Shown one piece after another: positions 10,034 through 15,000 of a stretch of DNA of 64,000 nucleotides. A model generated the notes under the pieces. It worked only from the letters and a program-made list of their open reading frames with translations. It was not told the DNA's origin and did not search any database. Numbering within the stretch: position 1 is the stretch's first letter; every line of letters starts with the position of its first letter. The position numbers and the translations under genes are program-made. This stretch comes from a virus. Location of the stretch: IMG/VR virus record IMGVR_UViG_3300045125_000170, positions 2,464-66,463 of that record. One strand, 5' to 3'.

Positions 10034-10620
10034 ATGAGCAACATAACTATTTCAGTAATAGAGTATTGGAGTATTACTCGTCCTATCCCATACGATAAAA
10101 ATGCTAAGCTGCACCCAGAATCTCAAGTGCAACAAATAGCTGATAGTATTGTTGAATTTGACTTTTTGGATCCAATAGCTGTTGACGAAAAGGGCGTAAT
10201 CCTAGAAGGACATGGACGATTGTTAGCAGCTAAAAAGCTAAATATGAATACAGTTCCTGTCATTGTTATTTCTGGATTGTCTAAAGAGCAAAAAATAGCG
10301 TATAGGCTCGCACATAATAAGATCTCACATAATTCCGGATTTAACCCGGAATTAATTCAGCACAATTATCTTTCCTGGATGAAAATAGCTTTGATATCGA
10401 GTTAACTGGCTTCACTTTAGAAGATTTGCACTTTGGTGAAGCTTCACCAGATTGGGAGAAGCCTTTTTCTCCAGAGTTTACGGAATCAGACACAACAATA
10501 TTAAAGTTAAAGATTGCAACAGAGTATAAGCAGCGTTTACTAGATACGCTAGACATAACAAAGCCCAATCCCTCTGCTGAAGAATTGGGCGATGCTTTGA
10601 TTGATTACTTGCACTTGTGA
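10034..10620 (+). CDS. ParB/Srx N-terminal domain protein (frameshifted)
   Basis: PYDKNAKLH..QVQQIADSIVEFDFLDPIAVDE..ILEGHGRLLAAKKL..AYRLAHNK. Confidence 0.85.
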
Positions 10621-11153
10621 GTGAGTGAGAAAATTATTTAGATTCGGTGGTGTGTTCATTAGCAATAGTTGCTAACAAAGATTAAACCCCACTTTTGCTA
10701 TGCTTGCAACAAGATCTTCATCAAGATTGATTTTCAAGCGTATTCTAAGTGGAACTTAGGACTTCGCAAAAGCAGGGCTATCTATATTATAGCAGTAACA
10801 TTACCCAACTCTTCCAACAAAGAATTAGGTAATGTTTGATTTAAGCTGATTTCCACAATCTCCGGACATCTGCATCTGTCCATGTTCTATGCCCCACCGG
10901 AGCTGGCTTTAATTGATTAGCTTTTGTCCAGGAGGACTTGCTAGCTAAGAACTTTCATGGATGGATCTTCAATTGGATCTGCTTCCAATTGAAATGTGCC
11001 ATCTTTTAGCTAGAAAAACCAACAATCTTGTACACAGATTGTTTTTGAGTTTCTATTGTTATTGGATTGCTTGCTCAATCAAAGATTGTTGTTGCTTCTT
11101 TTTTCTCAGCTGCTTGTATGACAACGTATTCATACATTTTGGGAGAATACAAC

Positions 11154-11474
11154 TTAGGCATTTAATGCCTCCTTTTTAGAAGACAATATTTCAATTGACT
11201 CCACTAAGATTACTGGCTTTTCTCTTTTGTTGCCAGTTTTAACGTCATCCCAGCAGTCAATTTTAAGACTGCCTTTAACAGCAATTTTTGTTCCTTTTGG
11301 AACGTAATTGATTAGTATATCGCCTGTTTTTCCCCAGGCTTCAATATCAAACCAATCTGTCAACTCTTTTGTTCTGCGCACTGCTAGGGTTACCGTCACC
11401 TTGGATGCGCCTGACTCAAAATACTTAACTGTTGGCTCCTGTCCTGTGTTTCCTACCAAAATCACTGTGTTCAT
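11154..11474 (-). CDS. ssb: Single-stranded DNA-binding protein
   Basis: MNTVILVGNTGQEP..TDWFDIEAWGKT..KGTKIAVKGSLKIDCW. Confidence 0.9.
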   Translation of the reverse strand: MNTVILVGNTGQEPTVKYFESGASKVTVTLAVRRTKELTDWFDIEAWGKTGDILINYVPKGTKIAVKGSLKIDCWDDVKTGNKREKPVILVESIEILSSKKEALNA

Positions 11475-11510
11475 TTGTTCTACGGCGTATTTGTTATTTG
11501 TTTTATTGTA

Positions 11511-11939
11511 TCACGAATCCTCAAACAAAGCAAGATTACTTTGCTTATCAACGATAATGACTCTAATTAATGTTTTCTTAAACATTATTTGTCTTTGTGG
11601 ATTTAAATCCATAAATTTAAATCCATTCAAAGAAGACAATCGAGTCATTCCTATTAGACAAAATTTATTTTCAACGAAATTTATTAGAGTTTTAGCAAGT
11701 TGAATACTTGCATTTATCTCTAATATTTCGAGATTATCTAACACAAACAATGCTGAGAATGGAACTCCCAAGATAATATTTTCTATTACCTGTGATTGCT
11801 TGTTAATGTCCCAACACCATTCTCTTGGGACATTTATTTTACCCAAATTGATATCAACAATCAATTGCTCTATTGTCCAATTAGTTGTTTGATATTTAAT
11901 CTGTTTTTGTTTGCTCCTAATATCTTCCTCTGCTATCAT
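11511..11939 (-). CDS. Degenerate stand-alone DUF262 (GmrS-like) domain protein
   Basis: DIRSKQKQIKY..W..QSQVIENIILGVP..LSSLNGFKFMDL..RQIMFKKTLIRVI; YQR and DGxQR motifs altered. Confidence 0.65.
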   Translation of the reverse strand: MIAEEDIRSKQKQIKYQTTNWTIEQLIVDINLGKINVPREWCWDINKQSQVIENIILGVPFSALFVLDNLEILEINASIQLAKTLINFVENKFCLIGMTRLSSLNGFKFMDLNPQRQIMFKKTLIRVIIVDKQSNLALFEDS

Positions 11940-12084
11940 GTTTTTACTTTACTAAACTTTTATATATTATATCAATTATTTGTTTTAACGTCAACAGATA
12001 TCTACATTAAATTTTGCTTTACAATCTACCAATTTTATATCAAATAAGTTACAGTTTAAAAGTTATTTATTTACTATAAAAAAT

Positions 12085-15000
12085 ATGCTTGACTCAACAT
12101 CTACCGCTAATCCAGTGTTTTACAGAACTTACTCTCGTCGTACTGAGTTTGGACGCGAGTCTTGGGAGCAAGTGTGTGACAGAACATTAAAAGCATTGGA
12201 AAGATTGGGAAGATTAACGCTAGAAGAGATAGCGTTAATTACCAAGAATATGAAAAATATGAAATCATTGCCAAGCGGTAGATGGCTGTGGGTTGGCGGC
12301 ACAGAATGGTTGGAAAATCCATCTAATTTCTCCGGAGCATACAATTGCACTTCTACCAATTTGACTGGATGGAACTCATTGCTTTGATGATGGATTTGGC
12401 AATGATGGGTTGTGGCACAGGAGCAGTGATTGAGCCAAAATACTATCAGAAATTACCTAAAATTTTAAATAAGATAAATGTCAGCATTTTTGGTAAACCA
12501 GGAGAAGTAGATGCTGAAAACAGACAAGAGCATACTACCTGGATTAATGCTGGAAATGAGCAATTTATTATGTATGTTGGCGATAGCCGTAGTGCGTGGG
12601 TAGATGCTTATAAATTATTGCTAGAAGCATCATCAAATTCTCTTTATGGGGGCAAAATAAATTTAAGTGTGTGCTTGTCTCATGTCCGTCCTAATGGAAC
12701 ACCGCTCAAGTCTTTTGGAGGAGTTGCTAATCCTGTTAAATTACAAGACTTGTTTTTAAGATGCTCTGCAATATTAAATAAAGCAGTTGGAAGATATTTA
12801 ACATCAGTTGAATGCTGTTTATTAATAGACGAAGCTGCTAGCGTTGTTGTTGCTGGTAATATACGTCGCAGCGCTGGAATGCGTCAATTCAGTTCATATG
12901 ATAATGAAGCGGCATCTGCTAAAGCTAATTTATGGCAACAAACACCAGATGGGTGGAAAATGGATCCAGAGAAAGATGCTTTACGGATGGCAAATCATAC
13001 AAGAGTATTTCACCAAAAACCATCATTACAAGATTGCTTAGATTCAGTCTCTAGTCAATTTTGGAGTGGAGAAGGTGCAATACAATGGGCGGGAGAAGCT
13101 GTAGCCAGGGCAAATGCAGATGTTGTTACTCCAGAGAATAAGACAGAATTTTTACGTGCTTACGAAAGAAACACTGCTGCAAAATGGTTTGGTAAATATG
13201 GAATTAATGAAATTGATGCTAAAGAGCGATTACAACGATATGGTTTGAATCCATGTGTTACTGCTGATACTTGGATTCACACAGAGAAAGGAGCAAGACA
13301 AGTTAAAGACTTAGTAGGTAAGCAAACAAGTGTTTACATTAATGGAGAATTATTTAGCACTACACGTGAAGGTTTTTGGCTAACAGGAGTCAAATCAGTG
13401 CTAAAAGTAATCACTCAAGAAGGATATGAATTGCGATTAACTGGCAATCACCAACTACTCAAAGTTACTGCTCAGACTCAGAAAAAGCAATACTCTTGAA
13501 TGGACTGAAGCTAAAAATTTAAATCCAGGAGATTATATTTCAGCTTCACAATCATCGTGAAGCACAGCATTGGGATAGTTTCTGGAACCTTTGACGAAGG
13601 CTGGTTAATTGGCAATTTAATTGGTAATGGCAGCATTTCATCAACACAATGGGGCAAAACAGCACTTTTACGATATTGGAAACTGACTCTCAAAGGAAAT
13701 GGGAAAACATGCTGTTGCTTTTACTTAAAAACTGTTGATTATGCTGGAACTACAGAATCTGGACATTACTATAAACAGCAGAATTATCGAGTAATTCAAT
13801 CAACAGAATTAGCTAAATTAGCTGCTAGCTATGACGTTACTTTAGACAACAAAATGCCAACACGTAAAATTGAAGAAGCAAGTTATGCATTTTACTGTGG
13901 TTTTTACGTGGTTTATTTGATGCTGATGGCAGCGTACAAGGAAGTCAACAAAAAGGAATTAGTATTAGATTGTCACAAAGTAATCTAGAAACTTTAAAAA
14001 TAGTTCAAAGGATGCTGGCGAGATTAGGTATTATCTCAACAATTTATCAAGAGCGTCCTAATGAACTTTGTTATCAGCAATGACAACATTTACGTGTTCC
14101 AGGATATTGTTGATTCCAAAAACCTGACAAAGCAAGTCGTTTAAATAAATTAATTAGTGGATACAAACGAAAATTAAATCGTGAGCGATTTGTAGTTAAA
14201 ATCAAAGAAATTATACCTGATGGAGTAGAAGCAGTTTTGACTGCACTGTTCCAGGAGTTTCTCGATTTGATGCTAATGGAATTGTGGCTCATAATTGTGG
14301 TGAGATAATTGGCAACAATTTCCACTGCGTTAGTGGTGACACACTGCTAATCACAAAAGATGGATTGCACGCAATTAAAGATGTTGTAGGATGCGATGTT
14401 GAGATTTGGAATGGCGAAAATTGGAGTCAAGTACAGCCATTTAAAACTGGTAGTTCTCGTGTTCTTTACCGCGTGCGTTTTAGCAGATGGCACCTATTTA
14501 GATGCTACCGAATATCATCGTTTTTTTGTTAAAGACAGATTTGGGAAAGAGTACAAAGAAGTACAGACAAAAGACTTAATGAATGCGAGTAAGTATTGTA
14601 TTCACACCAAGCCATTTACTATTCAGTATGATGATGGATTGGATATTGATACTAATTATGCTTACAGTTTGAGAGTAGCTGTGGGAGATGGCACCACAGA
14701 CAAAAATAACAATGCCAAAATAAGACTGTATGGGGAAAAAATTGCTTTATCCGTAGCAGGTAATAAATCTCCTATTAGAGAATACGAATACGTTACAAGC
14801 TTTACTGATGTTACAAATTTAAGTTTTTTCTGGGGAATTTCTAAAAAGTCTCAAAACCAAATCAGAAGCATTAAACATCATAGCAAGTTGGAATCGTGAA
14901 GCAATTTTGCACTTTATTGCTGGCTTAGCAGATACAGATGGATCAGAGACTGATGGCAATGGTATTAGAATTTATATCTCTGATTATCAAAGAGCGCATA

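Follow-up and report, generated by a model that had tools for sequence, protein, structure and literature searches.

A truncated, stand-alone DUF262-type gene with degenerate nucleotide-site motifs in a cyanophage-like provirus

The DUF262 domain is the proposed sensor or switch of GmrSD/BrxU, SspE, Menshen, PD-T4-2, and Dazbog. Phages also carry many DUF262 copies that come without an effector, and to our knowledge nobody has tested the role of these copies. The domain is marked by three motifs, QRxxxW (motif I), DGxQR (motif II), which is the nucleotide-phosphate centre, and FxxxN (motif III), and a C-terminal ParBDB domain is universal in NsnA (PMC12065111). Our literature search returned no paper on truncated DUF262 inhibitors, nor any stand-alone forms in the Menshen study.

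The gene analyzed here lies in a 64,000-nucleotide stretch of DNA (the window) taken from an IMG/VR provirus record, which spans 67.5 kb and is rated 65% complete. By Pfam and phrog matches, the window encodes a terminase, structural genes, an SSB, a ParB-like gene, and an intein-bearing class II ribonucleotide reductase (RNR; nrdJ). We call the element cyanophage-like because its large terminase shares 69% identity with the terminases of two Cylindrospermopsis phages; the flanks of the provirus hold small ORFs only. The target gene and its immediate surroundings are as follows.

11511..11939, minus strand: stand-alone, truncated, motif-dead DUF262 gene (ParB/Srx fold, NsnA-like N-terminal domain), 142 aa, assigned by homology and model
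11154..11474, minus strand: SSB gene, 106 aa, OB fold only (Pfam SSB, E=1.5e-21), 36 nt downstream of the target gene
11966..11994, minus strand: promoter-like site TTGACG-17-(TG)TATAAT, matching the consensus at 11/12 positions, 27 nt upstream of the target ATG
12085..13499, plus strand: start of the divergent, intein-bearing class II RNR gene (nrdJ), whose first ORFs (12085-12387 and 12345-13499) overlap in different frames

The target ORF starts with ATG and runs for 142 codons with zero internal stops, so that the initial annotation was right to call it intact without invoking an indel. At the base composition of the window (35% G+C), the probability that a frame stays open over this length by chance is ~3e-5, and this value, the homology, and the fold together rule out a chance ORF. 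A plus-strand ORF overlapping the gene (11308-11703) was taken as spurious.

Pfam alone does not suffice to assign the protein. The profile comparison with PF03235 (GmrSD_N) proposed at the outset did yield a match, but one of 18.5 bits (E=0.0023), below the gathering cut-off of 33.2 and confined to profile positions 1-50; in the search of the element's own genome the score was 14.2 bits. The DUF262 scaffold that had been recognized from the letters was nevertheless confirmed by phrog_2598 (E=7e-23), by the PADLOC profile for NsnA (E=2.5e-15, model positions 40-172 of 385), and by phmmer, which, run exhaustively against 1.84 billion representatives, found 543 relatives, almost all of them motif-intact, at E<=1e-3 and no full-length DUF262 protein more than ~40% identical to the target. 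AlphaFold2, given 25 relatives, produced a confident model (mean pLDDT 93.4, pTM 0.84) that agrees with this assignment, which we consider sound at the level of DUF262 and the ParB/Srx fold.

The nearest kin of the target are not GmrSD and SspE, the systems to which the initial annotation had pointed, but NsnA/PD-T4-2A-like proteins paired with HEPN genes. In tblastn searches, the target showed 33-36% identity to the first third of 378- to 381-aa proteins of Moraxella Mcat phages and of a P2-like phage (Peduovirus P24B2), the match covering the N-terminal ~135 residues. These long relatives score 84-99 bits with PF03235, and a HEPN_MAE_28990 gene follows each of them. The target and this group have in common a subfamily-specific N-terminal helix-strand and the blocks 'QSxFIES..G.P' and 'LNGF.F.DL'. 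Among GenBank phages, tblastn with the target (E<=0.01) or with a short relative found long forms only. These comparisons identify the target as a homologue of the ParB/Srx-fold DUF262 domain at the N-terminus of ~350- to 390-aa NsnA/PD-T4-2A-like defence proteins.

Structural comparison points to the same fold. The best solved structures for the model (VIA-align) were BrxU (Z 8.8 over 122 residues, rmsd 3.0) and SspE (Z 6.7), whose DUF262 domains (PDB 7p9k and 6jiv) share the ParB/Srx-like fold with the target; those proteins differ in being NTPases with an intact DGQQR motif and fused DUF1524 nucleases, and their profile similarity to the target is marginal (E=0.07). No DUF1524 (His-Me finger) nuclease was found in the target ORF or in its neighbours. 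Lower matches were sulfiredoxin (Z 5.3), PadC, the DndBCDE-DndI structure 9jfl, the N-terminal domain of a pNOB8-like ParB, KorB, and Osa. Sulfiredoxin and PadC (Z 5.0-5.3, PadC at rank 4) resemble the target as single-domain ParB/Srx folds of similar size, with no detectable sequence relationship; both keep nucleotide binding, and PadC is a ParB-like adaptor rather than an enzyme. Foldseek returned nothing significant for the model against the PDB and many DUF262 proteins, with E values down to 1e-8, against viral models (BFVD).

What sets the target apart from the NsnA/PD-T4-2_A group (350-390 aa) is its length of 142 aa, the missing ParBDB domain, and the state of motifs I to III, each of which is lost or cut off.

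11811..11831, minus strand: remnant of motif I (P-x-Y-Q-R-x-x-x-W), reading V-P-R-E-W-C-W in the alignments, with three residues including the Q deleted
11697..11714, minus strand: remnant of motif II (x-D-G-x-Q-R), reading N-A-S-I-Q-L in the alignments
11511..11525, minus strand: C-terminus F-E-D-S-stop (LFEDS, then stop), inside motif III (FxxxN) by alignment, with the N position past the stop

Alignment to full-length relatives bears out the erasure of the first two motifs, which had been read as VPREW and NASIQL from the start. The motif I stretch 'IPDYQREFVW' of full-length relatives corresponds to 'VP---REWCW' in the target, with R and W retained. In long forms the P, R, and W of this motif are 98-100% conserved; in the clade to which the target belongs (see below), the W is kept and the position of the R is occupied by K, T, or a gap and is thus not conserved. 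Motif II of the target reads ASIQL, in which the D, G, and R are gone and the Q is retained. The corresponding D77, G78, and R81 are present in 100% of 61 long forms; each of the three clade lineages has other residues there (ASIQL, SSIDF, and SSIQF) but retains the scaffold positions W43, S49, I52, E53, G58, P60, F88, and L95.

The C-terminus requires one correction. The protein had been thought to stop at the end of the domain; F139 of the target aligns with F169 of the Moraxella Mcat24 phage homologue, whose Pfam domain reaches residue 185, so that the target ends within motif III and ~16 residues short of the Pfam domain end. The C-terminal ParBDB domain of ~200 aa, present in all near full-length relatives and in Menshen NsnA, is absent, the target stopping at residue 142, just before the SSB gene. 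A search for longer forms did not find a closely related fused version of the target. With each nucleotide-site motif either lost or truncated, NTPase activity of the target is very unlikely, and the description of the protein as catalytically dead is supported to that extent.

In a tree of 153 DUF262 N-terminal domains, the target group forms one clade (SH-aLRT 99) with two other lineages, P0005 (148 aa) and P0007 (133 aa), and identity among the lineages is ~40%. Every member of this dead clade is short (133-148 aa) and without motifs I and II. The P0007 cluster holds 23 near-identical members, nearly all of 133 aa; some of them are represented by up to 84 contigs, and the longest contig of the cluster measures 93.6 kb. 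Both sister lineages were found in IMG/VR phage contigs, one of which is 86 kb long, is rated 100% complete, and has terminal repeats. Scans with the target protein gave zero matches in viral contigs or JGI metagenomes and one 2-kb contig in the genome collection. Three more proteins of 142-143 aa are 88-91% identical to the target.

The 2-kb contig L005 carries a 143-aa copy that is 88% identical to the target and has the same gene arrangement. From this one DNA pair (window versus L005, Nei-Gojobori), we counted 14.5 synonymous and 16.5 non-synonymous differences, which corresponds to a dN/dS of 0.25 (Fisher p=1.7e-4); for the SSB gene of the same pair, dN/dS was 0.06. The only indel between the two target copies is a single in-frame codon. 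Neutral decay, which the initial annotation had named as an outcome that would speak against its reading, is at odds with this ratio as well as with the like length of the gene in three diverged lineages and with the high-confidence fold. As judged from these substitutions, the target lineage is under purifying selection.

Other genes of the window are less well preserved. The ParB-like gene (phrog_620; 10034..10620, plus strand) is split by a frameshift into ORFs of 123 aa and 64 aa, while it is unbroken in L005 (at least 184 aa) and in the relatives L007 (192 aa) and L010 (195 aa). As it forms a single ORF in these three contigs, the lone ParB/Srx-domain protein apparent in the window is a broken gene rather than a designed fragment. 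On the minus strand at ~10820-11160, the counterpart of a 101-aa ORF that L005 has between the SSB and ParB-like genes contains in-frame stops and a frameshift and is a pseudogene in the window. The nrdJ homologue is one ORF of 1809 aa in L007 and of at least 1619 aa in L010, which suggests that the overlapping nrdJ ORFs of the window reflect a frameshift. With three genes interrupted here and intact in relatives, the window prophage is, on this reading of its ORFs, decaying, and with its neighbours broken, the present-day function of the window copy is less certain than that of the family.

In such a setting the target itself could be a non-functional relic, the 5' remainder of a phage-borne DUF262-HEPN gene that stays open by chance, and full-length DUF262 genes with HEPN partners do ride on temperate phages. 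We consider this very improbable, given the dN/dS value, the in-frame nature of the sole indel in L005, the pLDDT of the model, and the conservation of the promoter-like site described below. The same stop position also recurs in lineages that are only 40% identical, including the apparently complete 86-kb genome with terminal repeats. The comparative data largely refute the relic reading. Very probably, the target is a real gene under purifying selection whose product is a pseudo-enzyme, a single ParB/Srx-fold domain derived from the N-terminal DUF262 domain of an NsnA/PD-T4-2A-like protein, with the ParBDB domain and the effector partner lost.

The surroundings of the gene are conserved as well. 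Three lineages share the gene order intein-RNR nrdJ(-), X(+), SSB(+), ParB-like(-), where X is the target orthologue, and the SSB occupies the same position in L005, L007, and L010. X and SSB are spaced by 20-36 nt across the lineages, except in L010, where the ORFs as called overlap by 17 nt and the Pfam SSB match starts at residue 10 of the SSB ORF. The promoter-like site upstream of the target gene is identical in L005, and L010 has a similar site (TTGACA-17-TATTTT) at the same place relative to its orthologue, both by consensus match. Transcription of the target gene appears to start from the sigma-70-type promoter-like site and to run on into the SSB gene; the target lies at the border of a module for replication and nucleotide metabolism in a cyanophage-like siphovirus lineage. 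The 145 nt that separate the divergently transcribed target gene and nrdJ (11940-12084) are near-identical to the corresponding region of L005 over ~120 nt, a higher conservation than in the adjoining coding DNA, and the promoters of both genes probably lie there. None of the SSBs of the window, L005, L007, and L010 has an acidic C-terminal tip.

This arrangement raises the possibility, which we hold to be somewhat unlikely, that the target has no immunity role and is an accessory of the replication module, a non-catalytic ParB-fold adaptor that would load, bridge, or regulate the tail-less SSB and/or the ParB-like protein on phage DNA. The gene order is kept in three lineages at ~40% identity, with X close upstream of or overlapping SSB, and the Cylindrospermopsis phages, related by their terminase, lack both X and the neighbouring SSB. 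SSBs without the acidic tip may need another way to recruit partners, and ParB/Srx-fold adaptors such as PadC exist. The phages are related to one another, however, so that they inherited the shared gene order, and it does not count as independent evidence for functional coupling. An SSB-based scan for relatives returned the same contigs plus two distant contigs without the target gene. X also evolves faster than any other gene of the module: compared within the same phage pairs, it shows 40-42% identity, much lower than the 57-73% of SSB, 58-82% of ParB-like, and 65-80% of the RNR N-terminus. An adaptor acting on DNA is further disfavored by the lack of the family's proposed DNA-binding domain (ParBDB) and by isoelectric points that do not suggest a consistent DNA binder, and the other all-short clade of DUF262 domains does not lie beside SSB.

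Charge also bears on a DNA-directed role. The target has a pI of 6.3, with 16 K+R versus 16 D+E, and among its orthologues the pI varies from 5.8 to 9.1; an acidic DNA mimic is therefore ruled out for the target. A shield or reader of modified DNA is improbable for related reasons. Such a protein would keep the sensor surface without the switch or the nuclease and would coat or mark the modified DNA of the phage, thereby blocking modification-dependent restriction. DUF262 domains sense glc-5hmC DNA and phosphorothioate DNA (PMC10952713; PMC12065111), GmrSD and SspE being the readers concerned, and genes for a DNA methyltransferase and a PAPS reductase occur nearby in relatives of the module. 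Yet neither the target nor its orthologues have a consistent basic charge, and no modification genes were identified beside the target gene in the window. In SspE, moreover, the ParBDB or M domain is needed for DNA binding (PMC12065111), and the target lacks it. Since NTP binding or hydrolysis is implausible and there is no consistent charge bias, the target should act as a protein-binding module; a binding-only role, probably one of protein binding, is the simplest reading of the sequence.

Not all stand-alone forms look like the target. The 153-domain tree contains a second all-short group (n=15), in which motif I is lost and DGxQR is mostly kept. Its members in metagenome contigs are complete ORFs of 144-187 aa and are often arranged as tandem pairs; no SSB was found near them in the contigs examined. 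Tandem pairs of complete short DUF262 N-domain genes (144-197 aa) are located in these metagenome contigs.

L023:3980-6724
L024:543-2435
L025:3908-4925
L033:3959-5949

In L023, the two short genes lie on either side of a gene for a 270-aa ATPase with an NsnB match of 235 bits, and a conserved protein of ~306 aa, which matches no family, comes after the pair. Pairs of the L023 type could represent either a Menshen-like system in split or miniature form or a set of decoys. The target itself could be one component of a minimal system, Menshen-like or for exclusion, that the phage carries and turns against competitors, with the tandem pairs and the NsnB-like neighbour of L023 as precedents. We regard this as quite improbable, since neither the window nor its 86- to 94-kb relatives contain a second copy, an NsnB/NsnC-like gene, or a HEPN gene, and since the nucleotide site of the target is dead while the paired short forms mostly keep DGxQR. 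Neither nsnB (an ABC ATPase with DUF3696) nor nsnC lies beside the target gene, whose neighbours are SSB and nrdJ, as they are in L005, L007, and L010. In another contig (L028:2125-7088), a gene for a 187-aa protein consisting only of DUF262 has a phage-type NAD synthetase gene (phrog_36784, 455 bits) on one side and, further along on the other, a DNA methyltransferase gene, a neighbourhood that suggests a counter-defence flavour.

Full-length DUF262+ParBDB genes were found in temperate-phage or prophage genomes at three loci, each followed by a gene of ~230-245 aa.

L022:3977-5730, following gene of 231 aa
L001:3953-5822, following gene HEPN_MAE_28990
L002:140-2015, following gene HEPN_MAE_28990

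A DNA cytosine methyltransferase gene is located near the long-form gene in L022 and L002, and the ORF preceding the long form in L022 looks repressor-like by eye. Scored as NsnA by PADLOC, and with neither NsnB nor NsnC, these three loci are read as a phage-borne two-gene system. A HEPN_MAE_28990 gene follows the long forms of Mcat24 and P24B2; the target has no such HEPN partner downstream, in which it departs from PD-T4-2-like loci. The full-length relatives and their HEPN partners occupy accessory regions of prophage and temperate-phage genomes. The location differs as well: the NsnA/PD-T4-2_A group lies in a defence hotspot, whereas the target adjoins SSB in a replication module.

We tentatively favor, at a probability that falls short of even, an anti-defence role in which the target would bind to components of host DUF262 immunity. 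The protein would occupy the partner or ligand surface of DUF262-type immune sensors of the host, either Menshen-like or of DUF262-HEPN pairs, and this competition would uncouple sensing from the effector. Such a competitor would be a weaker and broader form of the decoy proposed in the initial annotation, a dead mimic that inhibits DUF262 defences in a dominant-negative manner. That the clade is specifically a nucleotide-site-dead, NsnA-derived decoy jamming Menshen-like or DUF262-HEPN immunity through the ligand or partner surface seems to us doubtful, and unlikely on present evidence. In favor of anti-defence binding are the descent from a defence sensor and the combination of complete disarmament with retained subfamily-specific surface blocks. 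ESM Atlas clusters of look-alikes of 127-185 aa are mostly viral, in keeping with the largely viral distribution of short forms, and the full-length cluster closest in structure (TM 0.92) occurs most often in Cyanobacteriota. Full-length relatives with HEPN partners in phage accessory regions, the rapid evolution of X, which has the flavour of a host-interaction gene, and the conserved early-type promoter-like site are likewise consistent with it.

Several observations weigh against anti-defence binding. At no more than ~40% identity to any full-length DUF262 protein, the clade is old; it is no recent copy of a host gene and tracks no particular host protein. In all three lineages the gene sits in a fixed syntenic slot by SSB, unlike typical anti-defence cargo, which is variable, and its neighbours are decaying in the window prophage. 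A simple heterodimer poison is disfavored by the absence of the ParBDB domain. Finally, in a published study AF3 models gave no complex of NsnA with itself, NsnB, or NsnC (PMC12065111), which leaves no modelled self- or partner complex of NsnA that a decoy could mimic.

In concept, such a binder would resemble other antagonists in which a mobile element encodes part of a host protein's interaction module as a non-catalytic copy. H-NST, a shortened version of H-NS, poisons H-NS oligomers, and AcrIF3 mimics the Cas8f helical bundle; neither is homologous to the target, and the likeness is a mechanistic analogy only. The target is best filed, for the present, as a pseudo-enzyme offshoot of an uncharacterised class of stand-alone phage DUF262 proteins.

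The dead clade amounts to a natural loss-of-function experiment, in which the fold and the surface blocks were long kept after the nucleotide site had been destroyed and the remainder of the protein removed. Because fold and surface blocks remained under purifying selection long after that loss, the function of the target does not need NTP turnover, and hypotheses for the whole viral family of stand-alone DUF262 proteins are narrowed to binding or competition. The target is also a small candidate, one that folds well and is easy to express, for use against Menshen- and PD-T4-2-type systems. If its partner were SSB or the ParB-like protein, it would be a new accessory factor of cyanophage replication modules. 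If it were a decoy, it would represent the first class of inhibitor for Menshen-like and DUF262-HEPN systems, an anti-defence protein made from a truncated and disarmed sensor, and would open a way to understand what the large, uncharacterised family of stand-alone DUF262 proteins does in phages.
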